A stretch of DNA of 64,000 nucleotides. It comes from an uncultured Mycoplasmatota bacterium (GTDB lineage: Bacteria > Bacillota_I > Bacilli_A > RF39 > UBA660). Below, piece after piece: positions 9,458-26,521 of this stretch. Both the position numbers and the translations under genes were made by a program. Each line of letters opens with the position of its first letter. The stretch's first letter is position 1. Below the pieces are notes generated by a model, which was given only the letters and a program-made list of their open reading frames with translations, ran no database searches and was not told the DNA's origin. The DNA is taken from positions 238-64,237 of the forward strand of contig CAMLWN010000001.1 of assembly GCA_946490195.1 (NCBI GenBank), given 5' to 3'.

Positions 9458-10201
9458 ATGAAAGGAAAAGGAAAAATTTTGTTTGCAATTATCTGCTTTT
9501 TTGGGTTTATAGCAAATACGCTCGCAGCTTGTGATTATGAAACACAGGTAAGACTAGCAACTGAAGCATCAAATGTCAATATAACATATGAAATTCGACA
9601 CGAAATTATAAATGCAAATACAGGTCAAATTGCACCAGAAGCTACAGATGAAGATGTAGAATTTGATAGTGAATATACATATCAAGATTTTATTTATATA
9701 ACGATAATGAATGTGACAGAAAACATTTATGTGGAGTTAATTGGAAGCGATGGAAGTACACAAAGTATTTATTTTAGCGACACCAATGAAGGGACAATTG
9801 AATTAGACGGTGGATTAGGAGAAAATATTATTACTTACACTGTAAATATTCGCAGTAACAACTCAAATTGTAGCAGTGATATGTTAAGAACATTTGAATT
9901 TGTTACTCCAAAATGGAATCCATATAGTGCTTTAATAGCATGTGAAGGAATAAATGAATATTACTGTGAACCATATGTGACTTATGAAATTGATTTAACT
10001 GAAGGTGAAATTATCGATCGTGCATCAGAAGCAAAAAAAGAAGAAACAAACGTTCCACAAGATGAAGAAAATTCGAATTGGTGGACAGAATGGTTAAATA
10101 ATAATCCATGGTTTATTCCAACAGCAATTGGAGTAATTGTTTTAGCAGGGGTTGCTACTACCGTGATAATTATTAAAAAACGGAGGAGTAAAGTATTATG
10201 A
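9458..10201 (+). CDS. surface protein with signal peptide and C-terminal TM anchor (KKRRSKVL stop-transfer)
   Basis: Signal peptide ending ANTLAAC, then a C-terminal hydrophobic helix plus basic tail. Translationally coupled to the next gene. Confidence 0.5.
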   Translation: MKGKGKILFAIICFFGFIANTLAACDYETQVRLATEASNVNITYEIRHEIINANTGQIAPEATDEDVEFDSEYTYQDFIYITIMNVTENIYVELIGSDGSTQSIYFSDTNEGTIELDGGLGENIITYTVNIRSNNSNCSSDMLRTFEFVTPKWNPYSALIACEGINEYYCEPYVTYEIDLTEGEIIDRASEAKKEETNVPQDEENSNWWTEWLNNNPWFIPTAIGVIVLAGVATTVIIIKKRRSKVL

Positions 10202-13605: not shown

Positions 13606-13617
13606 GGGTGATTAGAT

Positions 13618-14055
13618 ATGAGAGAAGCTTATTGGGGATACTGGTTAATTTTATTAGGTATTTTCGTTATTGTAATTATGATGTTAGTATCTAATCTTAC
13701 TACCACAAATACTCAAGACTATTATTTAATTAAAGAAGTAACCGAGGCATCAATGGTCGATGCCGTTGACCTCGCTTACTATCGCCAAAGTGGCGAACTA
13801 AAAATTAATCGTGAAAAATTTGTTGAAAGTTTCTTAAGAAGATTTGCTGAAAATGTTGCCTTAAATACCTATAAAGTTGACTTTTACGGTATTTATGAAG
13901 CTCCACCAAAAGTAAGCGTTCGCGTTACATCTCAAACATCAACATATACAGTTGCAGCTGATCCAACTTCATTTGATATTATAAATGAAATTGATGCCAT
14001 TCTAGAATTAGATAATACAATTACATCTTCAGGAACCCAGGATAATAACATTTAG
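13618..14055 (+). CDS. TadE/pseudopilin-like protein with prepilin-type leader
   Basis: N-terminus MREAYWG followed by a 22-residue hydrophobic helix. It shares the M[RK][EQ]A..G leader with four other proteins in the block. Confidence 0.5.
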   Translation: MREAYWGYWLILLGIFVIVIMMLVSNLTTTNTQDYYLIKEVTEASMVDAVDLAYYRQSGELKINREKFVESFLRRFAENVALNTYKVDFYGIYEAPPKVSVRVTSQTSTYTVAADPTSFDIINEIDAILELDNTITSSGTQDNNI

Positions 14056-14088
14056 TTAAGATGCTTTAACTTAGAAGGAGGAATAAAA

Positions 14089-14943
14089 ATGGGGAATATA
14101 ATGGTAAAAATCAAAAGGTTTTTTCAAAACAAAAACACAGTCACAATTATCTGTGTATTAGCCGGAATTTTAGTTTTGTATGTGGGCTACAATTGGAGAG
14201 TTAATTCAGCAACTGCACCAGTTTCTATTCCTTATGCAAGAAATGTGTTAGAATCTCAACATGTTATTACAAGTGAAGATATTGGCTTTGTAGAAGTAGC
14301 AAATACAGTTTTGGAAAAAATGCCAAACATTATAAGAAGTTCAAGACAGTTGGTTGGACAAGAAGTTGCTTACGGAAATACTATTCAAGCAAATAGCTTC
14401 TTTTTTACCACCGATATAGCTGATCCTGTTACCAATCAAGAAAACTCTTCAAAGCTTTTAGGAATGGAGGATGGATATTCGCCTATTACTATTGAGGTAG
14501 ATCTTCATTCAACCTATGGTAATGCAATGTATCCAGGAAATTACATTGATTTGTGGTTTAGAGGAGAAGATGAAGCAGGAAGATTGATTTATGGAAAATT
14601 CATTCAAAGTATCAAAATCCTTGATGTAGATGATGATGAAGGAAATTCTGTATTTGAATCGACAGCAACTTCTCGTACGCCATCTCAGTTAGTTTTTGCT
14701 GTACCAGATGATCTAAGAGCTTTAATAAATAATGCTCAAGAAATTGGGGAATTAGTACCAGTACCAAGAAATAAATCTTACACAGCAAATCCTGGAGAAA
14801 CAATCGTTGCAAGTACATATTTACAAAATTATATTTTATCTCAAACAGCAATTATTACAGATGATAACAACAATAGCAATAATAACAACAATAATAATTC
14901 AAGTACAAATAATAATACAACGACAGGAAATGAAGGTGAATAA
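14089..14943 (+). CDS. Flp pilus assembly protein CpaB/RcpC-like (SAF domain), copy 1
   Basis: N-terminal TM, then a SAF-like segment (PYARNVLESQHVITSEDIGFVEV). Poly-N/T C-terminal tail. Paralog of the next gene. Confidence 0.6.
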   Translation: MGNIMVKIKRFFQNKNTVTIICVLAGILVLYVGYNWRVNSATAPVSIPYARNVLESQHVITSEDIGFVEVANTVLEKMPNIIRSSRQLVGQEVAYGNTIQANSFFFTTDIADPVTNQENSSKLLGMEDGYSPITIEVDLHSTYGNAMYPGNYIDLWFRGEDEAGRLIYGKFIQSIKILDVDDDEGNSVFESTATSRTPSQLVFAVPDDLRALINNAQEIGELVPVPRNKSYTANPGETIVASTYLQNYILSQTAIITDDNNNSNNNNNNNSSTNNNTTTGNEGE

Positions 14944-14945
14944 AA

Positions 14946-15743
14946 ATGGGAAATTTTATAACAAAAGCAAAGCGCTTTATCAGTAATAAAAATACCGTAA
15001 CCATTATCTGTGTGATTTTAGGAGTACTTGTTCTTTATATAGGATATAATTACCGAGTTCAATCAGCTTTAAATCCAACAAGAGTTCCTTACGCAAAAGT
15101 TCCATTAGAAGCAAGGCATGTAATTGAACCTGAAGATATCGGTTTTATTGAAGTAAATAGTGATGTAATTTCAAGAGCCACTAATTTAATTACGAACCAA
15201 AATGATTTGATTGGTAAAGAAGTTACTTATGGAAATACTATACCTGCGAATGGTTTATTCTATGAAGGAGATGTTACCGATCCAGCTTTATCTCCAGATT
15301 ATGTTTTAAATGATATTCAAGATGGATATACAGCATTTTCTTTATCGGTAGATTCAGCAAGCACATATGGAAATTCTATTCATAAAAGTGATTACATTGA
15401 TTTATGGTTTAAAGGAGAAGATGACACCAACAAAATTATCTATGCTAACTTAGTTGAAAGTATTAGAGTTTTAGATGTTCGCGATGATAATGGAGTGTCA
15501 CTTGAAAATTCTGAAACAGGAATACCTAGTGAATTATTATTTGCGGTACCAGATGATCTTTACAGTTTATTAGTTAAAGCAGAGTCTATTGGCGAACTAG
15601 AAGCTGTGCCAAGAAATAAATCATATACTGCTAATCCAGGGGAAACAAGAGTAGCTAGTGAATATGTAAAAAACTTTATTTTATCAAAATCCGCAACTAT
15701 ACCAGAAGAAAATATTACAAATAATACAACGACAGAAGAATAA
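14946..15743 (+). CDS. Flp pilus assembly protein CpaB/RcpC-like, copy 2
   Basis: Same architecture and clear sequence similarity to 14089..14943. Confidence 0.6.
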   Translation: MGNFITKAKRFISNKNTVTIICVILGVLVLYIGYNYRVQSALNPTRVPYAKVPLEARHVIEPEDIGFIEVNSDVISRATNLITNQNDLIGKEVTYGNTIPANGLFYEGDVTDPALSPDYVLNDIQDGYTAFSLSVDSASTYGNSIHKSDYIDLWFKGEDDTNKIIYANLVESIRVLDVRDDNGVSLENSETGIPSELLFAVPDDLYSLLVKAESIGELEAVPRNKSYTANPGETRVASEYVKNFILSKSATIPEENITNNTTTEE

Positions 15744-15763
15744 AAAGAAAGGGATGAGGAGTA

Positions 15764-16885
15764 ATGAATGATGCAATATTTTCCCAATTAGACTTTGGCC
15801 CTCTTGATGAATTTTTAAAAGATGATAACATTACCGACATTTCCTATAGTAATGGAGGCCAAGTCTGGTTAAAATCTTTGGATAAAGGAGTCTATCAGTC
15901 AAATAGACCAGAAATTAACAATGCACTTATGGAAAAATTAGCTTTTCAATGCGCTAATGTAATGGGAAAAACGTTCAATATGGCTCATCCTTTTTTGGAT
16001 GCTGAAAGTGCAGAACTACGTTTAAATTTCGTTCATGAATCCATCGCAACAAATGGAATTGCATGCGTTATTCGTAAAACACCAGCAAAAATTCGTTTAA
16101 ACAGGGAAAAGTTAATTAATGAAAAATATGTTTCAGCAGATTTATTAGATTTTCTTTTAAAATGTGTTGAAGGTCATGCCAATATTATTGTTAGTGGTGA
16201 AACCGGATCTGGTAAAACAGAACTAGTTAAATATTTAGCTTCACACACAAGAGAAAACGAAAAAATTATTACTATTGAAGATACCTTGGAATTACACTTA
16301 GACCGAATTTTTCCACATAGAGATATTGTCGCGATGAAAACAAACAACATTGCAAGTTATTCAGATGTGCTAGTTACCTGTATGCGACAAAATCCAATAT
16401 GGATATTATTGTCCGAAGTTCGTAGTGCCGAAGCAGTTATGGCTGTTCGTAACTCAATATCTTCTGGACACCACATTTTATCTACAATCCATTCAGATAA
16501 AGCAAGTCTAATTCCAATGCGTATGTTTGCTCTTATTGAAAGTAATATAGATGTTGAACAATTTGTTACGACAATTCATCGTTATGTTCAAATAGGAATA
16601 TATGTTAAAGGATATATGAGTAAAGAATTAGGAAGATTTCAAAGAGAAATTTTAGAAGTTTGTGAGTTTTATGTTGATGACAACAACAAACCACAAGTAA
16701 ATACGATTTTTAAGAAAACTTTAACCGGAGAAATTACTATGAATAATCCAACAAAATATTTAAGAGATTATCTAGGAATCAGTGGAATTACTTTAGATGA
16801 AGATATTTTTCATTTAGATGGCAAAAAAGATGAGTCTTCATCAAGTGCTCCATCGGCTGCCCCAGCAGCAATTGAAACTTTATAA
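15764..16885 (+). CDS. CpaF/TadA-type secretion ATPase (VirB11/GspE superfamily)
   Basis: Walker A VSGETGSGKT, Asp box, RQNPIWILLSEVR and His box SGHHILSTIH. Confidence 0.85.
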   Translation: MNDAIFSQLDFGPLDEFLKDDNITDISYSNGGQVWLKSLDKGVYQSNRPEINNALMEKLAFQCANVMGKTFNMAHPFLDAESAELRLNFVHESIATNGIACVIRKTPAKIRLNREKLINEKYVSADLLDFLLKCVEGHANIIVSGETGSGKTELVKYLASHTRENEKIITIEDTLELHLDRIFPHRDIVAMKTNNIASYSDVLVTCMRQNPIWILLSEVRSAEAVMAVRNSISSGHHILSTIHSDKASLIPMRMFALIESNIDVEQFVTTIHRYVQIGIYVKGYMSKELGRFQREILEVCEFYVDDNNKPQVNTIFKKTLTGEITMNNPTKYLRDYLGISGITLDEDIFHLDGKKDESSSSAPSAAPAAIETL

Positions 16886-16904
16886 AAGAAAGAAGGAGTT
16901 GAAA

Positions 16905-17801
16905 ATGCTTGAATTAATAATATTGATTGGATTAGCGGTTTTTGCTTTAACCTATCGATTTAATAATGGAGAAAATGTTTATAGATTTTTCGTGTCGCAA
17001 GCATCATCTGTATATGATAAATATGCTCCATATAGTTTTAAAGAAGTAAGAGCAAAAACAAAAGAATTAGGACAGGAATATACTCCAAAACAATACATGA
17101 CCCAAGTAATTGTATTTGCAGTTGTCGCATTTGGAATAACATATTTATATTTTTACAATATTATTATTTCAATCATTTACGCATTAATTGCAATTGCATT
17201 TATTCCATATCTTGCTTATCTAAGATGCCAAAAGGTATATAGTGAATTTATATTCGAACAAATTCAAATTTATACAACAAATGTTATTATGGAATTTAAT
17301 ACCACACAAAGTTTTGTTAAAGCTTTAGAAGGTGTAAGAGATTCAGGTATTTTAGAGGATCCTGTTTTGCAAGATGTAAAAACAATGGTCGATATGTCTT
17401 ATCAAAATGGTACAATTGATGAATCGATTGAATTTTTCAACGCAAAATACCCTTATTATATGGTTAAAAATATGAATCAGCTTTTCTTACAAATAACGAA
17501 AGAAGGAGCAAAAGATTCAGGCCAAGCATTAGAAAATATGTCCATGGATATCGATGCTTTAGTAGAAGGTGTTTATCGTGACCAGATTGATCGTAAAGAA
17601 TTTCACCGCCGGTTTATTACTTTCGGTTTAGCCCTTTTTTTACTAGTTATGGCAATGCAGTTTTTACTAGGAACAGATTCCTATATTGAATTATTAGATA
17701 TGTGGTACGTTCAATTAATACTACATGCCATCATCATTGTTAATAGTTTTTTCCTTATAACAGGTGAAAAATTCTATTATGAAGATGTGGGGGTGGAATA
17801 A
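16905..17801 (+). CDS. TadB-like inner-membrane platform protein (T2SS-F domain)
   Basis: TM-cytoplasmic domain-TM topology typical of GspF/TadB. Likely start is MLELII after an AAGGAG RBS. Syntenic after the ATPase. Confidence 0.6.
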   Translation: MLELIILIGLAVFALTYRFNNGENVYRFFVSQASSVYDKYAPYSFKEVRAKTKELGQEYTPKQYMTQVIVFAVVAFGITYLYFYNIIISIIYALIAIAFIPYLAYLRCQKVYSEFIFEQIQIYTTNVIMEFNTTQSFVKALEGVRDSGILEDPVLQDVKTMVDMSYQNGTIDESIEFFNAKYPYYMVKNMNQLFLQITKEGAKDSGQALENMSMDIDALVEGVYRDQIDRKEFHRRFITFGLALFLLVMAMQFLLGTDSYIELLDMWYVQLILHAIIIVNSFFLITGEKFYYEDVGVE

Positions 17802-18589
17802 TGTACTGGGAAGTCTTTGCATTAGCCGGAATTTTACTTTTCTTGCTAAATTATACAGGAAAGATAAGTGCCAATCGTTTTGTTGCCGATAACGAAGTAT
17901 ATTTTCGAAAATTAAAAGAAAGCGACTGGGATTTCTATGTAAAAGCCAAATATGGAGATACTCAAAATCCAGATTTCCTTTTTAATAAACGAATTAAAAA
18001 CGGATTAATTACCATATTTGTGGTGCTATGTTTTATGATTTCAAATTTATCATATATAACTATTTTGTTTAGTGTACTAGCTGGTTATTTAGTATTTAAA
18101 ATGGATTACTCAAATATTAAAAAGTATTACAAAAGACATTTAAATGAAATTGATGCAATGTTACCACACTATTTGAAAAGTTTAGAAATTTTAATTCAAC
18201 ATTATACAGTTCCTGTAGCCCTTGGAAAATCAATTGATGATGCACCAGGAATATTTAGAGAGGGATTACAAGAATTAATTAATCAAATAAATGAAGGCGA
18301 TGATACCATTCAGCCTTATATGCAATTTGCTAAAACCTATCCAGTTCGTGATTCTATGCGAATGATGCGACTTTTATATCGTTTGTCATTAGGACGTCAA
18401 GAACATAAACAAGAACAATTATTAACATTTTCTAGAACAATTTCAAATTTACAGCAAAAAGCAAGAGAATTAAAATACAAACAACGTTTGGAAAAAATGG
18501 AAGGAAAAACCATGAAAATGTTAATAACAACAGGTTTAGGAGTTATGGTTTTACTAATTTTTGCAGTTTTAATGTTAATGAATATGTAA
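17801..18589 (+). CDS. TadC-like inner-membrane platform protein (T2SS-F domain)
   Basis: Same topology as the previous gene. ATGA-coupled to it. Confidence 0.6.
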   Translation: MYWEVFALAGILLFLLNYTGKISANRFVADNEVYFRKLKESDWDFYVKAKYGDTQNPDFLFNKRIKNGLITIFVVLCFMISNLSYITILFSVLAGYLVFKMDYSNIKKYYKRHLNEIDAMLPHYLKSLEILIQHYTVPVALGKSIDDAPGIFREGLQELINQINEGDDTIQPYMQFAKTYPVRDSMRMMRLLYRLSLGRQEHKQEQLLTFSRTISNLQQKARELKYKQRLEKMEGKTMKMLITTGLGVMVLLIFAVLMLMNM

Positions 18590-18651
18590 TTCGTTGATAT
18601 TTTTGAAAAAAAAAGTTATAATAATAAACAGAGTAGGAGGTTTTATAATAT

Positions 18652-18888
18652 ATGAAAGAAGCAACAGGTGAATTAAATATGACAGTTGTAACTGTTGTAG
18701 CAATTGCTGCGGTAGCCGCATTCTTCTATGCATTTATTTGGCCATCAATTCAGGCAAATATTGAAAATAGTACAAAATGTTCAAGTGCTACAAATTGTAC
18801 AGATTGTAATGGAAGCACATGTAAATGTACTTATATGGATGGAGATACAGCAGAAACTGTTACTTGTCCTGACAACTCAAATACGTAA
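18652..18888 (+). CDS. Flp/Tad-type pilin 1 (Cys-rich C-terminus)
   Basis: MKEATG/ELNMTVVTVVAIAAVAAFFYAFIW is a class-III-like leader plus hydrophobic helix. It is 78 aa with 6 Cys in the C-terminal 40 residues. Confidence 0.65.
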   Translation: MKEATGELNMTVVTVVAIAAVAAFFYAFIWPSIQANIENSTKCSSATNCTDCNGSTCKCTYMDGDTAETVTCPDNSNT

Positions 18889-18909
18889 AGCTAAAAGGAG
18901 AATTAAAAA

Positions 18910-19149
18910 ATGAAAGAAGCTACAGGAGAATTAAATGCTACTGTGTTCGTGGTTATAGCCGTAGCTTCTCTTGTAGTTTTTTTCTATACAACTATTTGGC
19001 CACTTATTAAAAATAACTTGAATGAAAATGTTGCATGTAGTCGTGCTATCTGTGCCAGCGAACCGAATTCAGACGGTCGAACTGTTGATTGTTATGTTAT
19101 GGAAAACGGCAAAAAATCGGATGAATTTACGTGTGTTTGGAAAGGGTAA
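18910..19149 (+). CDS. Flp/Tad-type pilin 2 (Cys-rich C-terminus)
   Basis: MKEATG/ELNATVFVVIAVASLVVFFY. Paralog of pilin 1. Confidence 0.65.
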   Translation: MKEATGELNATVFVVIAVASLVVFFYTTIWPLIKNNLNENVACSRAICASEPNSDGRTVDCYVMENGKKSDEFTCVWKG

Positions 19150-19165
19150 TAGGAGGTAGAAAAAT

Positions 19166-19678
19166 ATGAGAGAAGCCATAGGTGGAACATGGTTATTTCA
19201 AATAGTCATTGTTTTTATTCTATTATTTACGGGCTTTATGTGCCTTACTATTAATCGTTCTAAAGCATTTAACGTAAAAGATCAAATTATCCAAACAATT
19301 CAAAGTTATAATGGGATTGATCTCGGATCTTCTGCTGAAAATTCTGAGGCGTTGGCTGAAATAGTAAATTATATCCAAGACAACTCATATCGAACTGCAG
19401 GAAATGTTCCAGCGGATGAAAAAGTTAACGGAGAAAAGGTCCCTTATACTTGCTATAATCGAGACGGAAGAGAAGATAAGGATAATCCAGTTTTTTGTAT
19501 AGCTAAAATGCCGGCAGACAAAGATGCATGCGCTGGAGATACATGTTTTAATGAACTTCCAGATATGAGTTATTACCGAGTAGTTGTATTTTATCAATTA
19601 GATTTACCAATATTTAAAGAATTATTTAGTTTTAAAATTGTTGGTGATACCAAAACCATGTATGGAGGTCCAAAATGA
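19166..19678 (+). CDS. TadE/TadF-like minor pilin
   Basis: MREAIGG/TWLFQIVIVFILLF leader. Confidence 0.5.
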   Translation: MREAIGGTWLFQIVIVFILLFTGFMCLTINRSKAFNVKDQIIQTIQSYNGIDLGSSAENSEALAEIVNYIQDNSYRTAGNVPADEKVNGEKVPYTCYNRDGREDKDNPVFCIAKMPADKDACAGDTCFNELPDMSYYRVVVFYQLDLPIFKELFSFKIVGDTKTMYGGPK

Positions 19679-20160
19679 GACAAGCAATAGGAACAACCTG
19701 GATTCTCCAATTAGTAATCATTTTTATGTTGATTTTCGTTGCATTTCTAGCATTAAGCATTAATTATACAAAAGCATTCAAAATTAAAAATGAATTGGTT
19801 ACTATTGTTGAAAAATACGAAGGAGTAACTCAAGGAGAAAATAGTCCAGTATATCTTTTAAATAACTATTTAAGATATAATAATTATACGGTAATGGGAA
19901 AATGTAACGAAGGAGATTGGGGAAATCAAAATTTAGATGAACCAATATTAGAAGAAGTAAAAACAAATGAGCGTTACTATTATTGTGTGAGAAAGATAGA
20001 CGACTCAACAGAATCATCACCTTATAAAGCTAAGTATAAAGTACGAATATTTTTTAAATTTAGTCTTCCAGTTATAGGAGATATATTTACATTCTCTGTA
20101 GAAGGAACAACTGTTTCAATAAAAGAATCTTCAAATGATATTGATGTAATGAGTGATTAG
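19675..20160 (+). CDS. TadE/TadF-like minor pilin
   Basis: MRQAIGT/TWILQLVIIFMLIF leader. ATGA-coupled to the previous gene. Confidence 0.5.
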   Translation: MRQAIGTTWILQLVIIFMLIFVAFLALSINYTKAFKIKNELVTIVEKYEGVTQGENSPVYLLNNYLRYNNYTVMGKCNEGDWGNQNLDEPILEEVKTNERYYYCVRKIDDSTESSPYKAKYKVRIFFKFSLPVIGDIFTFSVEGTTVSIKESSNDIDVMSD

Positions 20161-20174
20161 AAAGGAAGAAATTT

Positions 20175-21203
20175 ATGAACGTAAAAATCGTAAATAAATA
20201 TGCAAGTTTATTAGCTAATCTTGATTTGGATTTTATTAAAAGTGTTGAAGGAGAATTTACTCCAGAAGAAATTATTATGCAATTTCAAAACTTCTTTTTT
20301 AATAAAATGATTTTAGATATTACAGCTATTAAAAATTATGAAGATATTACAAAAATTCAAGAATTATCTGTAAATATGGATATGAGCAAAGTTATTCTTT
20401 TATTAGATGATTCAGAAATTGTAAATAGTCCAAGATATTTATCACAATTAGTATCTATGGGAATTTATAACTTTACGAGAAATGTAGATGCAATTAAGTT
20501 TTTAATTGACAATCCAAATTCTTATAAAGATGTCGCTCAATATCATCAATTAAATAATGTTATGGTAGCAAATGATTCAACAAATCAAGAAGAAAGTTCT
20601 GGAGGTAAAATGCCAGCTCCAACCGTTATTTATGAACAAAGAGAATTACGAGTAATTGGAATAAAAAATGTCACAGAACATGCTGGAAGTACAACATTAA
20701 CATATTTATTAAAAAAACAATTAGAGAAAAAATACAAAGTGGTAGCCGTTGAAGTAGACGATAATGATTTTGTTTTCTTAAACGATAAAACCCTAAAACA
20801 TACAAGCCATCTAGAACTTCAAAATTTTATTGCATCAAACTATAATTTAGATGTGATTTTAGTGGATTTAAATGATAAAGGTTCAGAATCTTCTTGTACT
20901 GAGGTTCTATACTTAATTGAACCTGGTTTAATTAAATTAAATAAGCTGATTCGTAAAGATCGCAACGCTTTTGAAAAATTAAAAGGTAAAAAAATCGTTT
21001 TAAATCGAAGTGTATTAAACAATACAGATATAGCGGATTTTGAATATGAATCAAGAAGTAAAGTATATTACAATGTTCCTTATGTAGATGATAAATTAGA
21101 AAACAATCATGTTTTAAATGAATTGTTAATTCGCATGGGATTTACAAGATTAGATGAAGAAAATTCAGAAAAAGGTGGCAAATTATTTAGTATTTTTAAA
21201 TAA
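20175..21203 (+). CDS. TadZ/CpaE-like protein (receiver-like N-domain + degenerate ParA/MinD ATPase fold)
   Basis: IGIKNVTEHAGSTTLT occupies the position of the deviant Walker A KGGxGKTT but lacks the Lys. The N-terminal receiver-like segment contains LLLDDSEI. Confidence 0.5.
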   Translation: MNVKIVNKYASLLANLDLDFIKSVEGEFTPEEIIMQFQNFFFNKMILDITAIKNYEDITKIQELSVNMDMSKVILLLDDSEIVNSPRYLSQLVSMGIYNFTRNVDAIKFLIDNPNSYKDVAQYHQLNNVMVANDSTNQEESSGGKMPAPTVIYEQRELRVIGIKNVTEHAGSTTLTYLLKKQLEKKYKVVAVEVDDNDFVFLNDKTLKHTSHLELQNFIASNYNLDVILVDLNDKGSESSCTEVLYLIEPGLIKLNKLIRKDRNAFEKLKGKKIVLNRSVLNNTDIADFEYESRSKVYYNVPYVDDKLENNHVLNELLIRMGFTRLDEENSEKGGKLFSIFK

Positions 21204-21381
21204 AAGAGATTGTTGAAAAACATTCTTTTTTTTTGATGGTAAGAAAAAAATTGAGGAACTTTTTATAATCTAAGATTTTATCATAAAAACAAAGATTAAA
21301 CAAAACCATTTTTGACTGCAAGAACCATGGACTTTAGTTAGACAATTTGTTAAAATAAATACATGATGAGGTGGTGGTACA

Positions 21382-23355
21382 GTGGACGATTTTAATGAAG
21401 AAGAACTTACTGAAGAAGAAATGGCAAATAAGGCCGCAGCAGAAGAAGTACCAGAACCACCTGAAGATACTTCAGAAAATACAGAAGGAGAGTTTGAAGC
21501 AGACACTTTTGGAAAAACTTTAGTTGCTGTAGGAAGCAAAAGTTTAATCAATTTCCTTTTAAAAAAATATAAATTTGTTATTGCAATAGCTTTAGGGGCT
21601 ATTGGATTGTTTTTTATAATATTAGCGGTAATCACTGGTTCCGGAGTTCCTGAATATGAATATGTTGAACCAAATTGTGAACAAGTAACAGTTATATATG
21701 AACCATATGGGTCTGATGAAGAAAGAACCGTAGTTATGGATATGGAAGAATACGTAAAAAAAGCACTTTATGCATATACAGAGGATCTTCCATCAAAGAG
21801 TTTATATTACCTATACTCATCCTTATCAATTGCTCTTCGAACAGAAGCACTAAACAATAACTGCCGAGTAACTTATCGTGATAAAGTATTAAGAGAACCA
21901 AGCGCAAAAGATGCAGATATTGAACGAGCTTTAAAAAATACAGCAGGCGTAGTTATGGTGGATAAAAATAATGACTTTATTAATGCATCTGTATCAGATT
22001 TTTGTTGGAATTCTCAAACTGAGGACAATTATCAATTATATCAAAACTTAGCAGTACCATTAGAATTTGCTGGAGCAAATTTCAGTAACGAAATTTATAC
22101 GTTTTGTCCATGTAACGATGAACAAGGCGATCCAACAGATGAAGAAAATGAATATTCTATGTGTTGGAGTAGTAATGAAGAAGATGCAGAATGGTTACAC
22201 CAGGATGAAACAAACGGCTATAGTGTTTATGGTGCATATTATTTAGCAATTGGATATGCTTACTTAGATGACAATATTCTTAATCATTTTTTTGGTGAAG
22301 ATATTTATTTAAAAACAATAATTAAATCGAATGCAAAAAAAGATGACGATACGCTTGATGTAAATAGTAGTGATTGTATGTGGTGGCCAATCGGTAGTGA
22401 TGAGACTACTACTGAAAATGGAGTAGTACTTGCGAGTGGAAAACCATCTACTACAGCAATCACAAGTTACTTTGGAAACCGTGGTGCTCCAATTGCTGGA
22501 GCAAGTACATATCACCGTGCTATCGATATTGGAAACGGAGTTGAAGGAAAAACCAATATAATTGCCGCTGCATCAGGAAAGGTTATCGCAGTAAACACAG
22601 GATGCACAGCAGGAAACTATTCATGTGGAGGACAATTAGGAAATTATGTAAAAATAGAACATCCTGATGGAACAGTTACCAGATATGGACATATGTATAG
22701 TGTTACTGTTCAAAATGGCGATAGTGTAGTTCAAGGTCAGGTTATAGGGACCATGGGTAATACAGGAAACTCAACTGGTCCACATTTAGATTTTCAGATT
22801 TTAGTAAATGGTACAGCTGTTAATCCACTAGACTATGTAAGTACTACCAAACCAAGACCTACTGGATGTACTTCACATGTTCCTGGATATTCTGGATCAG
22901 GAAATCAAGAGTTTATTGATTTTATTGTGCCTTATGCAGTTGAAGATATGAAAACTTCTAATATTTTAGCTTCGGTAACGATAGCTCAAGCAATATTAGA
23001 AAGTGGTTGGGGAAGTAGTGGACTAGCCAGAAATTACAATAATTATTTTGGAATGAAAGCAGGAAGTTCATGGACTGGAGAAACAGTAGATTTACCAACT
23101 AGAGAATGTAACAGTAATGGATGTTATGCAACAACTGCAACATGGAGAGTCTATTCAAGTCCACTAGAATCTTTAAAAGATCATTCAAGATTATTAGCAA
23201 ATAATAGTCGATACAATGGCGTAGTAGGAGAAAAAGACTATGTCACAGCAATTACGATTATCAAAAATGGAGGCTATGCCACAGATCCAGACTACGTTAA
23301 CAAAATTGTTGCTATCATTGAAAACAACAATTTAACGCAGTATGATAATGGATAA
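21382..23355 (+). CDS. membrane-anchored bifunctional peptidoglycan hydrolase (M23/LytM peptidase + GH73 glucosaminidase), PrgK/VirB1-like
   Basis: GTG start with RBS gaggtggtgg. Acidic cytoplasmic N-terminus, one TM, M23 motifs (HRAIDIG...G..GNTGNSTGPHLDFQI) and a C-terminal GH73 motif (QAILESGWGSS...YFGMK...YATDPDY). Confidence 0.75.
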   Translation: MDDFNEEELTEEEMANKAAAEEVPEPPEDTSENTEGEFEADTFGKTLVAVGSKSLINFLLKKYKFVIAIALGAIGLFFIILAVITGSGVPEYEYVEPNCEQVTVIYEPYGSDEERTVVMDMEEYVKKALYAYTEDLPSKSLYYLYSSLSIALRTEALNNNCRVTYRDKVLREPSAKDADIERALKNTAGVVMVDKNNDFINASVSDFCWNSQTEDNYQLYQNLAVPLEFAGANFSNEIYTFCPCNDEQGDPTDEENEYSMCWSSNEEDAEWLHQDETNGYSVYGAYYLAIGYAYLDDNILNHFFGEDIYLKTIIKSNAKKDDDTLDVNSSDCMWWPIGSDETTTENGVVLASGKPSTTAITSYFGNRGAPIAGASTYHRAIDIGNGVEGKTNIIAAASGKVIAVNTGCTAGNYSCGGQLGNYVKIEHPDGTVTRYGHMYSVTVQNGDSVVQGQVIGTMGNTGNSTGPHLDFQILVNGTAVNPLDYVSTTKPRPTGCTSHVPGYSGSGNQEFIDFIVPYAVEDMKTSNILASVTIAQAILESGWGSSGLARNYNNYFGMKAGSSWTGETVDLPTRECNSNGCYATTATWRVYSSPLESLKDHSRLLANNSRYNGVVGEKDYVTAITIIKNGGYATDPDYVNKIVAIIENNNLTQYDNG

Positions 23356-23367
23356 GAAGGTGAATAA

Positions 23368-24267
23368 ATGCAAGGAGAAAAAAGTAAAATCATTATATGG
23401 GGAGTATTATTACTTTTTGTAGTCATCATAGTTTTAATTGCAATGGTATTTAATAAAGAAGAGACGAACAATGATGATGGACATGAAATTCTGGACAATA
23501 CGTATAATTATTCGGAAGTTTATGATTATAGTACTTATCAAACTGTGTATCAATCTCTTTTTAACTACTATACTCAAGTAAATAGCAATTTTAATCAAGT
23601 ATTACCGCTACTATCAGAAATTTATAAAAAACGTTATAATATTTCATCTGATAATATAGAAAACTATATTGAAGAGGCTTATGGAAATTTTCTTTATCAA
23701 ATAACGGATATTCATGTAATTCAAAATTCATATTTTTCTATTTATTATGTAGAAGGTACGTATGCGATGGAACTTTTAGATTCCAATGCTAATGAAATTA
23801 TAGTTAAAGATCTTGTCTTTTTTGATACTGCTAATAACACATATGCAATATTACCAATTATGAATCAAAATACTACATTCGAAGAAATTATAGAAGAGTA
23901 TGGTTTAATGTCTTATAATCAAGAAATTCTTACGAATGAATACAATACTATTCCTAGTGTAGTAGTCTCTAATTTCAGAGAAGCGAGTGATTATTTTAGC
24001 GAGTTCCTTAATAAAATTCATACGGATTGTTACGAAGCTTATGAATTATTAGGAGAAAGTACAAAAAATACTTATCCGACTTTTGAACAATTTCAAAGTC
24101 TTTGTGAAAGCTATGTAACAGATTATCCATCATCAACAATACAAGATTATCAAATTAATTATGAAAATGAGCAAAAACTTATAACGATAACAGATAATTA
24201 CTCAATAAGATATAATTTTCGTATTCAAAGTGTTAAGAACTATTATGTAGATATAAGTATGAATTAA
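23368..24267 (+). CDS. membrane-anchored hypothetical protein
   Basis: N-terminal TM. N/Y-rich with no motif. Confidence 0.4.
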   Translation: MQGEKSKIIIWGVLLLFVVIIVLIAMVFNKEETNNDDGHEILDNTYNYSEVYDYSTYQTVYQSLFNYYTQVNSNFNQVLPLLSEIYKKRYNISSDNIENYIEEAYGNFLYQITDIHVIQNSYFSIYYVEGTYAMELLDSNANEIIVKDLVFFDTANNTYAILPIMNQNTTFEEIIEEYGLMSYNQEILTNEYNTIPSVVVSNFREASDYFSEFLNKIHTDCYEAYELLGESTKNTYPTFEQFQSLCESYVTDYPSSTIQDYQINYENEQKLITITDNYSIRYNFRIQSVKNYYVDISMN

Positions 24268-24322
24268 TTATTTTAAAATCATATATTTTATAGTATAATT
24301 AAAAGCAAATGGAGGTTTTTTC

Positions 24323-26488
24323 ATGAAATTTCGTGTCTCATCAAAAGATTTTATAATATTTGTAATATTTTGCATTTTTTTACTTTATTTATGTGCAATT
24401 GCTGTTTTGAATTTTTCATCTTTTGCTGAAGATGGTTCTTTCTATGGGCTAAATCCTTTTCCAGCATTTACAGGCGATTATTTATTATTAACCATATTCA
24501 TGTTTGTTGTAGCTTTAATTATTATTTTTTCTAGTGTATCATCTTATATTTTCGATCGAGATAAAAGTGCAAAAAAGCTATTAACAATTGGGGAAAAAGA
24601 AGAAAAAGGGTATTCTAGGTGGGCTAAAGAAAAAGAAATCAAAGAAGCGAAAGATGTAAAACATGTTAAAGCTATTGATCAACATGTTGATGGAGCAGGA
24701 GTACCATTAATTAATAATGGAACAGATATTTGGGTAGATGATGGAGAATATCATACAATGATTATTGGTTCTACAGGTTCAGGTAAAACAGAATGTATCG
24801 TAAAGCCAATGGTAAACCTTTTAGCTAAAAAAGGCGAGAGTATGATTATTAACGACCCAAAAGGAGAGTTATATAAATACTGTGGCGATTATTTAAAAGA
24901 ACAAGGATATAATATTGTTGTTTTAAACTTTCGTGAACCAGATCAAGGAAATTCTTGGAATCCATTAACCATGCCTTATTATTATTTTAAAAATGGAAAT
25001 GTTGACAAAGCAACAGAATTACTAGAGGATATTGCCAACAACATTTTGGTTGATCCAAAAAATAAGGATTCTGCTTTCTGGGAAAAGTCAGGTGCAGACT
25101 ATTTTTCAGGATTAGCAATCGGATTATTTAGAGATGGTAAAGAAAACGAAATAAATTTAAATTCTATCAATTTAATGAGTACAGTAGGTGAAGAAAGATT
25201 AGGCGCAAAAACATATATTCAAGAGTACTTTAATATGAAAGGAGAAGCATCTCCAGAATACATTTTTGCTTCAACAACTTTTAATGCACCATCTGATACC
25301 AAAGGAGGAATCCTTTCAACATTTAGACAAAAAATCCGAATTTTTGCTTCACGTGAAAAACTTTCAGAAATGCTTTCTTACAGTGATTTTGATATGCGAA
25401 GCATTGGAGAAAGAAAGACAGCTGTATTTTTAATTATTCATGATGAAAAAACAACTTATCATAGTTTATTAACTGTTTTCTTAAAGCAATGTTATGAAAC
25501 ATTAGTTGAAGTGGCCCAAGCAAACGGTGGAAAACTAACATATCGAACAAACTTTATTTTGGATGAGTTTGCCAATATGCCACCTTTATCTGATGTAGAT
25601 TCAATGGTATCGGCTGCAAGAAGTAGAAATATAAGATTTTCATTTATCATTCAAAACTTTGCTCAGTTAAATGATGTTTATGGTAAAGAAGTTGCAGCAA
25701 CTTTACGCGGAAACTGTGGAAATACGATTTACTTAATTAGTACCGAAATGGCAGCTTTAGAAGAAATTAGTAAAATGTGTGGAGAAGTAAAAAGTAAAGA
25801 AAAAGATAAAACAGCTTCAACCCCTTTAGTAACGGTAACCGATTTACAAAAAATGAAATTATTTCAAGCCATTATCATGCGTATCCGAATGAGTCCTTTC
25901 AAAACTCAATACGAACCAGACTTTAAAATTAATTGGGGAATTGAACGACGAGAGCTTGCGTTACCAACTAGAGAACAACGACCTGTGGCTACATTCGATT
26001 TAAAAACATATGTTTCAGAAGAAAAAAGAAAACAAATGGCGAACAATGCGCAAAATGGAATTCCTAATCCTGGAGGATTTAATCCGTTCATGCCATCATC
26101 AAATCCATTTATGGGTGGTGGTTTTGGAGGAATGGCCCCAAATCCTTTTATGGGAAATGATTCAAATCCTGCATTTCCATCGCCATCACAAAAGCCGATC
26201 TCTAGTCTAACAAATGATGAAATCGATAAAATGATTGCTGATATTGACAAAAAATTAAAAGAATTAGATGAGGAAGAAGCTAGAGAAAAAGAAAAATTGG
26301 CAAAACAAAACAATATGGAATTACCAAAATTGGAAACACAAAAACCAGTTGAACAGAATATAGAAATGCCACTTCCTAAAACGGAAGAAAAACCAAAAAT
26401 TAATGTGGATGCCGACTCAATTATCATGGATGACAACGTAATCACGGATGATGAGTTCTTTGATGACTTTTTCCACGACGATGAATAA
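24323..26488 (+). CDS. type IV coupling protein-like ATPase (VirD4/TraG/TraD family)
   Basis: Two N-terminal TMs, Walker A IIGSTGSGKTE, Walker B FILDEFANMP, and an all-alpha domain in between. The low-complexity C-terminus carries NPFMG x3. Confidence 0.65.
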   Translation: MKFRVSSKDFIIFVIFCIFLLYLCAIAVLNFSSFAEDGSFYGLNPFPAFTGDYLLLTIFMFVVALIIIFSSVSSYIFDRDKSAKKLLTIGEKEEKGYSRWAKEKEIKEAKDVKHVKAIDQHVDGAGVPLINNGTDIWVDDGEYHTMIIGSTGSGKTECIVKPMVNLLAKKGESMIINDPKGELYKYCGDYLKEQGYNIVVLNFREPDQGNSWNPLTMPYYYFKNGNVDKATELLEDIANNILVDPKNKDSAFWEKSGADYFSGLAIGLFRDGKENEINLNSINLMSTVGEERLGAKTYIQEYFNMKGEASPEYIFASTTFNAPSDTKGGILSTFRQKIRIFASREKLSEMLSYSDFDMRSIGERKTAVFLIIHDEKTTYHSLLTVFLKQCYETLVEVAQANGGKLTYRTNFILDEFANMPPLSDVDSMVSAARSRNIRFSFIIQNFAQLNDVYGKEVAATLRGNCGNTIYLISTEMAALEEISKMCGEVKSKEKDKTASTPLVTVTDLQKMKLFQAIIMRIRMSPFKTQYEPDFKINWGIERRELALPTREQRPVATFDLKTYVSEEKRKQMANNAQNGIPNPGGFNPFMPSSNPFMGGGFGGMAPNPFMGNDSNPAFPSPSQKPISSLTNDEIDKMIADIDKKLKELDEEEAREKEKLAKQNNMELPKLETQKPVEQNIEMPLPKTEEKPKINVDADSIIMDDNVITDDEFFDDFFHDDE

Positions 26489-26493
26489 AATTA

Positions 26494-26521
26494 CTGTTGA
26501 AAAAACTTTCAACAGTTTTTT
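26494..26521 (+). terminator. rho-independent terminator
   Basis: 9-bp stem ctgttgaaa/tttcaacag followed by T6. Confidence 0.7.

Follow-up and report, generated by a model that had tools for sequence, protein, structure and literature searches.

The conjugation operons of pLS20 and pBMB68 (pAW63-like) combine a Tad-like module with T4SS genes. On the transfer side, pBMB68 encodes MobP3, a VirD4 protein of the CD1115 family, TrbL, PrgI, a DUF87/VirB4 protein, and a hydrolase; its pilus side consists of a surface protein, DUF5411, an SAF/CpaB protein, an AAA ATPase, a T2SS/T4P ATPase, two hypothetical proteins, and DUF4320. The pLS20 gene set comprises Tie, a VirB11-like protein, genes 38-41, VirD4, VirB6, VirB4, a hydrolase, and MobP2. 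In the literature on pLS20-type systems the ATPase is named "VirB11" and a pilus is said to be lacking, and a filament is unreported. In Listeria LGI1, cpa/tad genes lie beside virB4, virD4, and virB11, an organization that has been likened to the pXO1-encoded system (PMC2834635). DUF5411 proteins have been associated with CpaF/PilC-type systems in Clostridia (PMC9523054).

A homologous combination is found on contig CAMLWN010000001.1 of assembly GCA_946490195.1, from an uncultured Mycoplasmatota bacterium (Bacilli_A; RF39; UBA660), of which a stretch of 64,000 nucleotides (the window) was analyzed. An earlier note had described positions 13618 to 26488 as one co-directional block of Tad-like, hydrolase, and coupling-protein genes, and an ORF check found every ORF in place and on the plus strand. 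The pilus side of the block encodes a DUF5411 protein, two CpaB-like proteins, a CpaF/VirB11-family ATPase, paralogous TadB/TadC-like proteins, two Cys-rich pilin-like and two minor-pilin-like proteins, and a TadZ-like protein; the secretion side encodes a hydrolase, a 299-aa membrane protein, and a VirD4-type coupling protein (T4CP). The unit probably starts upstream of the block, at about 9458, with the genes of two secreted proteins of 247 and 1,135 aa that are syntenic in relatives; a promoter-like site is present at 9398-9426, ahead of the first of these. The layout is operon-like, with a terminator-like hairpin straight after the T4CP gene. The features are as follows.

8183..9367, +, 394-aa secreted protein with a CAP domain and Listeria-Bacteroides repeat (Pfam CAP, Flg_new)
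9458..10201, +, 247-aa secreted protein, TM-anchored at the C terminus; syntenic genes of the pilus module begin here
10198..13605, +, 1,135-aa Cys-rich secreted protein, candidate pilus-associated adhesin
13618..14055, +, DUF5411 protein (Pfam DUF5411, E 4e-57)
14089..14943, +, CpaB/RcpC-like protein 1 (Pfam RcpC, 28.9 bits, cutoff 28.8; TIGR03177, E 6e-8)
14946..15743, +, CpaB/RcpC-like protein 2, tandem paralog (Pfam RcpC, 30.1 bits; also TIGR03177)
15764..16885, +, CpaF/TadA/VirB11-family secretion ATPase (Pfam T2SSE, 7e-26)
16905..17801, +, TadB-like platform protein, 298 aa (longest ORF from 16818)
17801..18589, +, TadC-like platform protein, 262 aa (hhalign to canonical T2SSF/TadC, 78.6%, E 1.7e-5)
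18594..18622, +, promoter-like site, TTGATA-17-TATAAT, just upstream of the first pilin gene
18652..18888, +, 78-aa pilin-like protein (MKEATGELN, hydrophobic helix, 4-Cys head)
18910..19149, +, 79-aa pilin-like paralog, aligning with the 78-aa protein
19166..19678, +, 170-aa minor-pilin-like protein (MREAIGGTW, then a TM helix)
19675..20160, +, 161-aa minor-pilin-like protein, forming with the 170-aa protein a paralog pair kept in relatives
20175..21203, +, TadZ-like two-domain protein, 342 aa (AF2 model, pLDDT 74)
21382..23355, +, membrane-anchored peptidoglycan hydrolase (Pfam Peptidase_M23, 9.7e-26; Glucosaminidase [GH73], 5.5e-38; N-terminal TM segment)
23368..24267, +, 299-aa bitopic membrane protein, its position between hydrolase and T4CP conserved
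24323..26488, +, VirD4-type coupling protein, 721 aa, CD1115 family (NCBIfam conju_CD1115, 289.5 bits, cutoff 250)
26493..26516, +, terminator-like hairpin, 10-bp stem and T run (consensus match only), end of the unit

At its 5' edge, the gene for the 394-aa secreted protein is co-directional with the block and directly upstream but has no counterpart in the loci of relatives; its product is possibly an accessory surface protein, of uncertain membership in the unit. Homologs of the 247-aa protein in three related loci (L010, L012, and L089) precede a large surface protein and DUF5411. The 1,135-aa protein had no match in Pfam and NCBIfam searches and evolves fast (dN/dS 0.42-0.46), and its position is that of the large surface proteins of pBMB68 (851 aa), pAW63 (CDS26), and pLS20 (Tie). 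The DUF5411 protein, whose gene has an equivalent position on pBMB68, has a pilin-like N terminus (MREAYWGYW, followed by a TM helix).

The earlier note's labels for the assembly proteins (CpaB, CpaF/TadA, TadB, TadC, and TadZ) held up in family, profile, or structure matches. The two CpaB-like copies share a 179-nt direct repeat and barely exceed the Pfam RcpC cutoff; both matched the pBMB68 SAF protein (tblastn E 2e-15 for copy 1 and 4e-17 for copy 2). The secretion ATPase scored 111 bits against the NCBIfam VirB11 model, 100 against the TadA-family conjugal transfer-associated ATPase, and 97 against TrbB, all below cutoffs, and was 27.6% identical to the pBMB68 ATPase (tblastn E 7e-38). Its homologs occur on 661 plasmids, 364 of them typed conjugative. 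The TadB-like protein, annotated at 298 aa in public contigs, aligned with the canonical Firmicute (Carboxydocella) TadB (hhalign 94.6%, E 6.5e-8) and with a 316-aa pBMB68 protein (tblastn E 2e-6), and the TadB- and TadC-like proteins are paralogs of one another (94%). In the TadZ-like protein, for which 6,310 homologs were found, the model pairs a MinD/ParA fold, whose Walker A motif is degenerate, with an alpha/beta domain at the N terminus that was read as receiver-like; Foldseek matched the protein to HypB/MinD/ParA/FlhG (E 1e-5 to 1e-3) and to TadZ 3fkq (E 4.5e-4).

The labels "Flp-like" and "TadE-like" did not survive. Between the 78/79-aa and 170/161/145-aa proteins and canonical Flp/TadE, hhalign detected no homology, and the G/XXXXEY motif is absent from them; they are pilin-like by architecture and position only. 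The N terminus and Cys pattern of the 78-aa protein are invariant across 11 homologs, and it weakly matched the archaeal Pilin_N family (Pfam E 0.003). The promoter-like site ahead of its gene matches 11 of 12 consensus positions, a consensus match only.

On the secretion side, the hydrolase has both catalytic domains and the membrane anchor that had been claimed for it, and it is predicted to have a VirB1/PrgK-type role. In most relatives it is encoded directly upstream of the T4CP, with the catalytic domains swapped (SpoIID or NlpC/P60 plus CHAP). The 299-aa protein was modeled by AF2, at low confidence, as a TM helix followed by two repeats, each of helices and then four strands, and Foldseek returned just weak, nonsignificant NTF2-like matches; with two alpha+beta repeats, it is possibly VirB8/TcpC-like. 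The T4CP matched T4SS-DNA_transf (183 bits, 9e-54), TrwB_AAD_bind, and TraG-D_C in Pfam, and pBMB68 by tblastn (1e-64). It has two N-terminal hydrophobic segments, intact and invariant Walker A/B motifs, an NPF-rich linker, and an invariant acidic-aromatic C-terminal tail (DEFFDDFF) that is lineage specific, the T4CPs of pLS20 and pBMB68 being without it. In line with the note, this two-TM ATPase is a true T4CP and not an FtsK/HerA-type protein; FtsK_SpoIIIE scored just 17 bits.

The operons of pLS20 and pBMB68 also have VirB4, VirB6, and a relaxase. In agreement with the earlier note, VirB4, relaxase, integrase, and prepilin peptidase were not found in the 64-kb window, within the sensitivity of Pfam, NCBIfam, and tblastn searches; nor were VirB6, VirB3, and VirB2-like homologs. 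Relaxase, oriT, and prepilin peptidase were sought without success in the window and in 160 related loci, so that a conjugative function is only putative even for complete superclusters.

Comparison with relatives accounts for the missing channel. In most of them the TadZ-like gene is separated from the hydrolase by a VirB2-like/VirB6/VirB3/TraC-like/VirB4 set. The order in L067 and L074 is p342, c9, c9, VirB6, VirB3, TraC, VirB4, HYD, T4CP; L089 is a colinear supercluster; and L088, whose chromosomal context is that of the window, has Pfam matches to PrgI, TraC-like, and P-loop_TraG/DUF87. Of the 50 metagenome loci that either extended 7 kb or more past VirB4 or had a T4CP match, 44 have a T4CP 2 to 5 kb downstream of VirB4. 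The T4CP tree gives an adjacent VirB4 as the ancestral state and places the window clade among at least four derived clades without it. The ancestral locus is a single colinear supercluster, running from surface proteins, DUF5411, and CpaB through the CpaF/VirB11-type ATPase, TadB, and TadC to the pilins, minor pilins, and TadZ-like protein, and then through VirB2-like paralogs, VirB6, VirB3, TraC-like, and VirB4 to the hydrolase, bitopic protein, and T4CP. The T4SS parts are linked in evolution with the Tad-like module, the two forming one system. In the window clade the segment from VirB2-like to VirB4 is gone from the locus, leaving the TadZ-like gene next to the hydrolase. Because most relatives have the channel set in between, this junction is a derived deletion or relocation and not the direct fusion of Tad and hydrolase genes that the note had seen. 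VirB4, VirB6, VirB3, and VirB2-like genes are absent from all window-clade loci examined (L006, L009-L013, L016, L017, L019, and L090).

Relocation is likelier than loss, since stand-alone VirB4 clusters of matching tree position exist in metagenomes. One of them (L092) lies between housekeeping genes, and in the VirB4 tree L092, L093, L094, and L096 are sister to L018/L088, mirroring the T4CP tree. By regression, their T4CPs would share 71 to 74% identity with the L018 T4CP; the value for the window clade is 69 to 74%. We lean toward channel genes located elsewhere in the window's genome, the clusters being linked to the clade by tree congruence and the divergence regression only.

The locus is chromosomal. 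It is flanked by RmuC, BacA, DacB-SpmAB, and NusA-IF2-RbfA, and 72 of 86 sequences (85 loci and the window) keep this position and the conserved housekeeping genes around it; no tRNA, flanking/att repeats, or integrase was found at the locus. At least 324 species genomes were confirmed to hold a relative of the T4CP, located at the same chromosomal site, and in its host, an uncultured spore-forming low-GC gut Bacilli lineage, the system is a fixed part of the chromosome. Purifying selection is strong on the T4CP (dN/dS 0.03-0.09); values were 0.03-0.05 for the secretion ATPase, 0.02-0.08 across the ATPase, TadB, and TadC, 0.06-0.09 for the TadZ-like protein, and 0.03-0.08 for the flanking RmuC. 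In 111 of 120 pairs, VirB4 showed higher conservation than RmuC. The hydrolase and the fast-evolving 299-aa protein had values of 0.3-0.8.

We consider it probable that the block consists of the pilus/adhesin module and the VirB1-(VirB8?)-VirD4 module of one Gram-positive conjugation-type T4SS of the pLS20, pAW63/pXO2 (pBMB68), pXO1, and Listeria LGI1 family; the note's proposals of an apparatus outside described MPF classes, or of a pilus with captured T4SS parts, give way to the homologous combination on pLS20 and pBMB68. By homology, the ATPase and TadB/TadC-like platform, with the TadZ-like organizer and CpaB-like proteins, would polymerize the 78/79-aa proteins into a thin surface filament, in which the 170/161-aa and DUF5411 proteins may be minor subunits. 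The large Cys-rich secreted proteins, judged from position only, would be adhesins. The R64 type IV thin pilus joins mating cells in liquid matings, and the filament is likened to it in the proposal that it would bring partner cells together or hold them. The hydrolase, as a homolog of PrgK/TcpG/CwlT-type enzymes, would then locally open the wall, and a T4CP hexamer could recruit a DNA or protein substrate, perhaps via the invariant tail, and pass it to a VirB4/VirB6 channel.

That the channel genes are missing from every window-clade locus, beside a T4CP under such strong selection, could instead mean that the genome has no VirB4/VirB6 and that a new translocator of DNA or protein is formed by the T4CP, the hydrolase, and the 299-aa protein in direct cooperation with the Tad-like ATPase and platform. 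The Tad and T4CP modules remain close through several arrangements, and no terminator-like site separates the TadZ-like gene from the hydrolase gene. We regard this as unlikely, however: less than 5% of the genome (size assumed) is covered for any clade member, stand-alone VirB4 clusters of the expected tree position and divergence exist, and we know of no VirB4-less conjugative T4SS with a VirD4-type T4CP. Unlinking is also common, as T4CPs of other clades stand apart from VirB4, hydrolase, and Tad genes (for example, in L036, L039, and L072), and the Tad cluster of L090 has no hydrolase or T4CP beside it. This last arrangement, together with the Tad cluster lying downstream of the T4CP in L010, L012, and L013, shows that adjacency is unstable among close relatives. 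It would fit an adhesion or colonization pilus locus that accidentally adjoins, with no functional link, a hydrolase and T4CP left by a decayed integrated conjugative element, as would the fast evolution of the hydrolase and 299-aa protein and the occurrence in Roseburia, Ruminococcus, and Eubacterium of DUF5411/CpaF-type pilus clusters with no T4SS described (PMC9523054). Such an accident is equally improbable, given that the T4CP is not decaying (its motifs, selection, and recurrence at one chromosomal site all being retained), that homologous modules form one operon-like supercluster in relatives, pLS20, and pBMB68, and that the locus showed no integrase, att repeats, or tRNA.

A system that is chromosomal in a gut Bacilli lineage, conserved like a housekeeping system, and without channel genes VirB4/VirB6 in the window is unusual. 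Conjugation machinery is not typically inherited vertically or conserved at the level of housekeeping genes, as this system is, which hints at a different, host-beneficial role. The pilus and T4SS may no longer mobilize an element and may serve the host, for example in DNA uptake or release, kin chromosomal DNA exchange, or contact-dependent protein delivery. We hold this only tentatively, at less than even likelihood. It is favored by the fixed position and housekeeping flanks, the occurrence in many species, the VirB4 conservation exceeding that of RmuC, the lineage-specific T4CP tail, and the failure to find a relaxase or integrase in any supercluster; a relaxase could, however, be encoded elsewhere in the genome, and the analysis found neither a substrate nor an effector or immunity gene. 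Precedents are H. pylori ComB in DNA uptake, the N. gonorrhoeae GGI in DNA release, and the Xanthomonas/Stenotrophomonas T4SS in killing. A domesticated role of this kind concerns the purpose of the system and is compatible with the structural assignment to the pLS20/pAW63 family.

The block is a series of co-directional genes in which a Tad-like pilus module is followed by a cell wall hydrolase, a 299-aa protein and a 721-aa ATPase. It lies within a longer run of closely spaced genes, in a window with a GC content of about 30%.

9458-26516, + strand: run of closely spaced genes
13618-26488, + strand: the block
13618-14055, + strand: DUF5411 protein, identified by family search
21382-23355, + strand: hydrolase with M23 and GH73 domains
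24323-26488, + strand: 721-aa VirD4-type coupling protein (T4CP)

The 721-aa protein is a true coupling protein. It contains the Pfam domains T4SS-DNA_transf (PF02534, 183.4 bits against a cutoff of 20.1), TrwB_AAD_bind (PF10412, 96 bits) and TraG-D_C (PF12696, 83.6 bits), and it scored 289.5 bits against the NCBIfam model conju_CD1115 (NF045973, "VirD4-like conjugal transfer protein, CD1115 family"), which has a curated cutoff of 250. Because that cutoff is exceeded, because both Walker motifs, A (GSTGSGKT) and B (FILDEF), are intact and do not vary among 14 homologs, and because the FtsK_SpoIIIE score is only 17 bits, the earlier note was right to see a VirD4/TraG-like protein here and not an FtsK/HerA ATPase. 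Two N-terminal hydrophobic segments, judged from the sequence itself, would form its membrane anchor. The nearest plasmid matches, about 30% identical, are VirD4 proteins of the CD1115 family from plasmids of Enterococcus, Bacillus and Clostridium (the T4CP of pLS20 matches with an E value of 1e-43), and the relatives at 60 to 100% identity fall into more than 120 protein clusters. The C-terminal 160 residues comprise a Gly/Pro-rich linker with NPF repeats and an invariant acidic-aromatic tail, DDEFFDDFF, which is kept by all of the chromosomal homologs and is missing from the T4CPs of plasmids pLS20 and pBMB68. This tail recalls that of TraD, which in the F plasmid docks TraM.

The gene block itself was found as first described, with the ORF families and the T4CP identified using Pfam and NCBIfam and the platform proteins identified using hhalign. 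Two tandem RcpC/CpaB copies both score at the Pfam threshold. The block ATPase has a T2SSE domain but is not resolved to a family by NCBIfam: the VirB11, TrbB and TadA models score about equally, each under its cutoff (100 bits against 373 for TadA-family TIGR03819 and 111 bits against 250 for VirB11 TIGR02788). The 298-aa protein aligned with canonical Firmicute TadB (hhalign, 94.6%), the 262-aa protein aligned with canonical TadC (78.6%), and the two aligned with each other (94%) as paralogs; neither has a T2SSF match in Pfam, and from the profile alignments they are TadB/TadC-like platform paralogs. The AF2 model of the 342-aa TadZ-like protein (pLDDT 74) consists of an N-terminal alpha/beta domain and a MinD/ParA fold, with Foldseek matches to HypB, MinD, ParA and FlhG and to TadZ (3fkq) at an E value of 4.5e-4. 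Its Walker A motif is degenerate, and its N-terminal domain may be read as receiver-like from the alpha/beta pattern only. A profile search of PDB sequences with the TadZ-like and TadB-like alignments gave no useful match.

The small proteins of the block have a pilin-like architecture without homology to Flp or TadE. Those of 78 and 79 aa begin with an invariant MKEATGELN, followed by a hydrophobic helix and a head with four Cys residues, and contain no EY motif of the G/XXXXEY processing type. The 170-aa, 161-aa and DUF5411 proteins share the start M-R-E-A-x-G/W-x-x-W and a TM segment. Comparison by hhalign found no homology of these families to canonical Flp (1% probability) or TadE (0.3%), and the "Flp-like" and "TadE-like" labels of the earlier note are not borne out. 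Consensus matching alone placed a strong promoter-like site 5' of the first pilin gene and a terminator-like hairpin directly 3' of the T4CP stop codon, and a consensus scan revealed no terminator-like site between the TadZ-like gene and the hydrolase.

The hydrolase starts with a TM segment and carries both a Peptidase_M23 and a Glucosaminidase domain; it is thus a membrane-anchored multidomain wall hydrolase, as in the VirB1 role. The position of this gene 5' of the T4CP is kept among related loci from other genomes and metagenomes (designated L followed by a number), and its catalytic domains differ by lineage, the variants being M23+GH73, SpoIID, NlpC/P60+CHAP and 900-aa forms with M23.

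Window, 21382-23355: hydrolase gene
L088, 6724-9177: hydrolase gene
L089, 20131-21002: hydrolase gene
L044, L059, L061 and L068: hydrolase genes of cluster c29

For the 299-aa protein, the AF2 model (pLDDT 57, low confidence) suggests two alpha+beta repeats, and Foldseek returned only weak NTF2-like matches, the best at a nonsignificant E value of 0.03.

Searches with Pfam, NCBIfam and tblastn detected neither VirB4 nor VirB6 across the 64 kb, and likewise no relaxase, integrase or prepilin peptidase, confirming what the earlier note had reported for four of these. For the TadV/CpaA peptidase, there was no Peptidase_A24 match in Pfam or NCBIfam among the window ORFs scanned, which were all but a few of those of at least 90 aa and none of the shorter ones, and no tblastn match with CpaA. 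The MobP2 and MobP3 relaxases and CpaA were also searched by tblastn against the window and all of the related loci without a match; other relaxase families were covered through Pfam and NCBIfam on the window ORFs, and no relative of the T4CP locus was found to have a relaxase. VirB6-like and VirB3/PrgI-like channel proteins are absent from the window, although they occur at the homologous locus in relatives. A 705-aa ORF at 61320 and its neighbors were considered as the missing VirB6 and VirB3 and were ruled out, being IF2, YlxR and RbfA. The locus is chromosomal and has conserved flanks, with FtsW/SpoVE and CotZ on the 5' side and rhodanese, RmuC, BacA, DacB-SpmA-SpmB, P-type ATPases, CotJB/CotJC and NusA-YlxR-IF2-RbfA on the 3' side. 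Neither tRNA genes nor att-like or flanking direct repeats were found around the block, and no plasmid or phage matched its DNA in searches at near identity. Look-ups of two flanking proteins of the window by exact sequence gave no record.

A scan of one genome per species yielded at least 324 confirmed relatives of the T4CP. The best 80 of these are almost all from metagenome-assembled genomes (MAGs) labelled uncultured Bacilli, Tenericutes, Mycoplasma or Erysipelotrichaceae or Candidatus Ventrenecus or Caccenecus, and clustering the ORFs of these loci revealed a conserved chromosomal frame in which the hydrolase, a bitopic protein and the T4CP are followed by rhodanese, a DedA-like protein, RmuC, BacA and further genes. 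Most loci have an additional gene set 5' of the hydrolase.

c9/c40: small proteins with a C-terminal T4SS_pilin-like domain
c8: about 730 aa, polytopic, VirB6-like
c6: about 104 aa, PrgI/VirB3-like
c5: TraC-like
c7: 595 aa, P-loop_TraG/DUF87, VirB4

The c7 protein is 30% identical to the VirB4 of pBMB68 (E value of 1e-87). In L067, L074 and L089 a TadZ-like gene lies immediately 5' of the channel set, and in L089 the whole forms a colinear supercluster in which 248-aa and 966-aa surface proteins, DUF5411, CpaB, the ATPase, platform proteins, pilins and the TadZ-like protein are followed by VirB6, VirB3, the TraC-like protein, VirB4 and the hydrolase. In a neighbor-joining tree of the T4CP rooted with pLS20 and pBMB68, a neighboring VirB4 is the ancestral state, and the clade of the window (with L006, L009 to L013, L016, L017, L019 and L090) is among the derived clades, at least four in number, that lack such a neighbor. 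Within the window clade the Tad module lies upstream in the window, L006 and L011, 3' of the T4CP in L010, L012 and L013, and beside unrelated genes in L090. Four to five tandem paralogs of 129 to 404 aa precede VirB6 in several loci (L092, 2311-6697; L088, 1-1546; L089, 11066-14775; and L095); they share a C-terminal domain of about 100 aa with a weak match to Pfam T4SS_pilin (VirB2-like), and such an expansion is unusual for a Gram-positive T4SS.

VirB4, VirB6-like and VirB3/PrgI-like channel genes are possibly encoded elsewhere in the genome from which the window derives. A metagenome scan with the VirB4 alignment recovered 80 loci, in 44 of which the T4CP lies 2 to 5 kb 3' of VirB4; six others extend at least 7 kb downstream and have no T4CP. 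In one of these six, L092, five VirB2-like paralogs, VirB6, VirB3, the TraC-like gene and VirB4 form a stand-alone cluster between an M18 aminopeptidase gene and genes for phosphoglucosamine-mutase-like and PBP proteins. In the VirB4 tree the loci L092, L093, L094 and L096 are sister to L018/L088, which is the position that the window clade occupies on the T4CP tree. When T4CP identity was regressed on VirB4 identity (r = 0.89), the T4CPs belonging with these four loci were predicted to be 71 to 74% identical to that of L018, and the window clade was observed at 69 to 74%. Since the tree positions match and the regression predicts the observed identity, this circumstantial evidence suggests that the channel genes were probably relocated rather than lost.

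The combination of a Tad-like module with a T4SS is already known from pBMB68, pLS20 and LGI1, and so the proposal that the block falls outside the described MPF classes does not stand: at the sequence level it essentially matches the pLS20/pAW63/LGI1-type combination, a type (pLS20/pAW63-pXO2) that by our own reading is MPF_FATA-like and for which the PLSDB/MOB-suite label is MPF_T. In pLS20 of Bacillus subtilis (genes 34 to 54), the order of functions is that of the block: a large adhesin (Tie) and a small TM protein precede an ATPase of the CpaF/VirB11 family (gene 37, 33% identical to the block ATPase with an E value of 5e-31), which is followed by bitopic/polytopic genes 38 and 39 at TadB/TadC-like positions and small hydrophobic genes 40 and 41, and a CD1115-family VirD4 and a cell wall hydrolase come after the pilus-type genes. 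Unlike the block, pLS20 is a plasmid that keeps VirB6, VirB3-like, VirB4 and VirB8-like proteins and a MobP2 relaxase within one operon, has no annotated CpaB, DUF5411 or TadZ-like genes and places the T4CP 5' of the channel genes. Plasmid pBMB68 (NZ_CP010581.1; pAW63/pXO2 family) shares with the block a CD1115-family VirD4, a hydrolase and, 3' of a large surface protein, DUF5411 and SAF/CpaB proteins, ATPases of the MinD-like AAA and T2SS/T4P types, two proteins of platform size and small TM proteins; the window proteins show significant sequence homology to those it encodes. It differs in being a conjugative pAW63-like plasmid with a MobP3 relaxase that has kept VirB4/TrbL/PrgI, in having the MinD-like gene 5' of the ATPase rather than 3' of the pilins and in having an NlpC/P60 hydrolase. 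Homologs of the block ATPase occur on 661 plasmids, chiefly of Bacillus, Listeria and Enterococcus, including Listeria plasmids and pXO1-size plasmids of B. anthracis. The pXO1-encoded putative secretion system of Grynberg et al. 2007 reportedly combines, from bioinformatic analysis, virB4, virD4, virB11 and virB6 with cpa/tad pilus genes. LGI1 of Listeria monocytogenes, in which cpa/tad genes lie beside virB4, virD4, virB11 and virB6, has been likened to the proposed pXO1-encoded system (PMC2834635). On published description, both are horizontally acquired, as island or plasmid, unlike the lineage-wide chromosomal locus of the window. A DUF5411/CpaF/PilC system has also been predicted in Clostridia (PMC9523054).

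The block resembles the canonical Tad/Flp pilus (Aggregatibacter, Caulobacter, Carboxydocella pCCELLA01) in its CpaB, TadZ-like organizer, secretion ATPase, two TadB/TadC-type platform paralogs and small pilin and minor-pilin-like genes in one operon; it differs in that it has no G/XXXXEY motif, no TadE/F homology and, in the window, no TadV/CpaA peptidase, in that its ATPase scores below the VirB11, TrbB and TadA cutoffs and in that T4SS genes are linked to it. In R64 (IncI1), a type IV pilus encoded beside a conjugative T4SS stabilizes mating pairs in liquid. The thin pilus and liquid-mating genes of R64 are mentioned in PMC4027160. This is a functional analogy only, as R64 is Gram negative and its pilus is a type IVb PilQ/PilR/PilS system that is not Tad-like. 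The pXO16 tip locus and the pCP13 Pcp locus were dropped as kin, a Tad-like module not being evidenced in the papers examined on either, and we found no relevant published work linking RFN20/RF39 with a T4SS.

The window was compared with L006, L010, L011, L012, L013 and L090 for selection; synonymous sites are near saturation, and the dN/dS values are therefore approximate.

T4CP: 0.03-0.09
ATPase, TadB-like and TadC-like proteins: 0.02-0.08
TadZ-like protein: 0.06-0.09
RmuC (housekeeping reference): 0.03-0.08
1135-aa protein, first pilin, hydrolase and 299-aa protein: 0.25-0.8

Neither the Tad-like module nor the T4SS module is decaying. In deeper pairs (loci L018 to L166 for VirB4), the median identity is 78.8% for VirB4, 70.5% for RmuC and 66.4% for the T4CP, and VirB4 identity exceeds that of the housekeeping protein RmuC in 111 of 120 between-species pairs.

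In our view the block probably represents the pilus/adhesin module and the VirB1-(VirB8?)-VirD4 module of a pLS20/pXO-type T4SS that is split and fixed in the chromosome. Judging from homology and position, the pilin-like proteins would form a thin filament assembled by the ATPase, platform, TadZ-like and CpaB-like proteins; the filament, carrying or cooperating with large Cys-rich secreted proteins, would mediate cell-cell contact; the hydrolase would open the wall locally; and the T4CP would feed a substrate into a VirB4/VirB6 channel. The coupling protein and the lack of VirB4 in the window thus stand, but the apparent anomaly of a coupling protein joined to a Tad pilus with VirB4 missing becomes a piece of a known architecture, and what is new here is a chromosomal, split and strongly conserved form of it. 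It may instead be that the T4CP, hydrolase and VirB8-like protein have been rewired onto the Tad-like ATPase, platform and pilus as a VirB4-independent translocator of DNA or protein, the channel genes being gone. Such a device would be maintained as a core chromosomal function, but we consider it unlikely. Accidental adjacency of unrelated modules appears equally improbable.

For the split T4SS, a further possibility, which concerns its purpose and which we hold tentatively, is that the system is domesticated and now serves its host, whether by exchanging DNA, by taking it up or releasing it, or by delivery on contact, since relaxase and integrase are absent and conservation is vertical and lineage-wide. 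An uncultured gut Bacilli lineage, with relatives in at least 324 species genomes, keeps a T4SS and a pilus at a fixed chromosomal site; this fixed site, the lack of a relaxase or integrase nearby and a VirB4 more conserved than a housekeeping gene point to a T4SS that has been domesticated for one of these roles at the level of the host, in bacteria not yet culturable. The comparison also bears on the plasmids. Gene 37 of pLS20 has been named VirB11, with genes 38 to 41 of no known role, and pLS20-type systems have been described as having no pilus components, the genes beside "VirB11" being without an assigned role (PMC8557374); the pAW63 counterpart of the block ATPase is likewise named VirB11 (PMC1196294). 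The "VirB11" of pLS20/pAW63-type operons sits within a complete Tad-like filament module (CpaB, TadZ-like, platform paralogs and pilin-like proteins), a point not made in the pLS20 and pAW63 papers examined. If this module builds a filament, the claim that Gram-positive conjugation lacks a pilus needs to be revisited.

Several other genes in the window were of interest. Two paralogs, at 26585-27454 (directly after the T4CP; 289 aa, compared with 311 aa in L003 to L005) and 49338-50603, share an N-terminal TM anchor of almost the same sequence and the motif NNLRYIGANPNNYV..NNELWRIIGVFNN. The protein at 305-2041 has a similar anchor, and a protein of L089 matches both it and the one at 49338; none of the three belongs to a Pfam or NCBIfam family. 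MAGs that bear the label "Tenericutes" or "Mycoplasma" in public databases contain genes for sporulation (SpoVE/FtsW family, CotZ, DacB-SpmA-SpmB, CotJB-CotJC and YutH); the lineage is evidently a walled spore-former.

Window, 2098-3210, 4029-4445, 32753-34901 and 48059-49115: sporulation genes
L090, 12355-13281: sporulation gene

A sortase with a long N-terminal extension adjoins an LPXTG surface protein, and the window also encodes a MazF/PemK-like toxin and a DUF4143 AAA ATPase; this set (38408-39967, - strand; 40086-40799, + strand; 32204-32611, + strand; and 46828-48051, + strand) appears to be unrelated to the block. An RVT_1 reverse transcriptase of 326 aa (51741-52721) lies where the GC content of the window is lowest (0.218 at 52 to 54 kb). 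Its neighbors (50938-51680, 52987-53850, 53843-54358 and 54618-55487) are small unannotated ORFs and ORF6N-domain (KilA/antirepressor-like) proteins, two of the latter matching in Pfam and a third (53843-54358) resembling them by eye only, and the region could be a retron/defense island or a prophage remnant.
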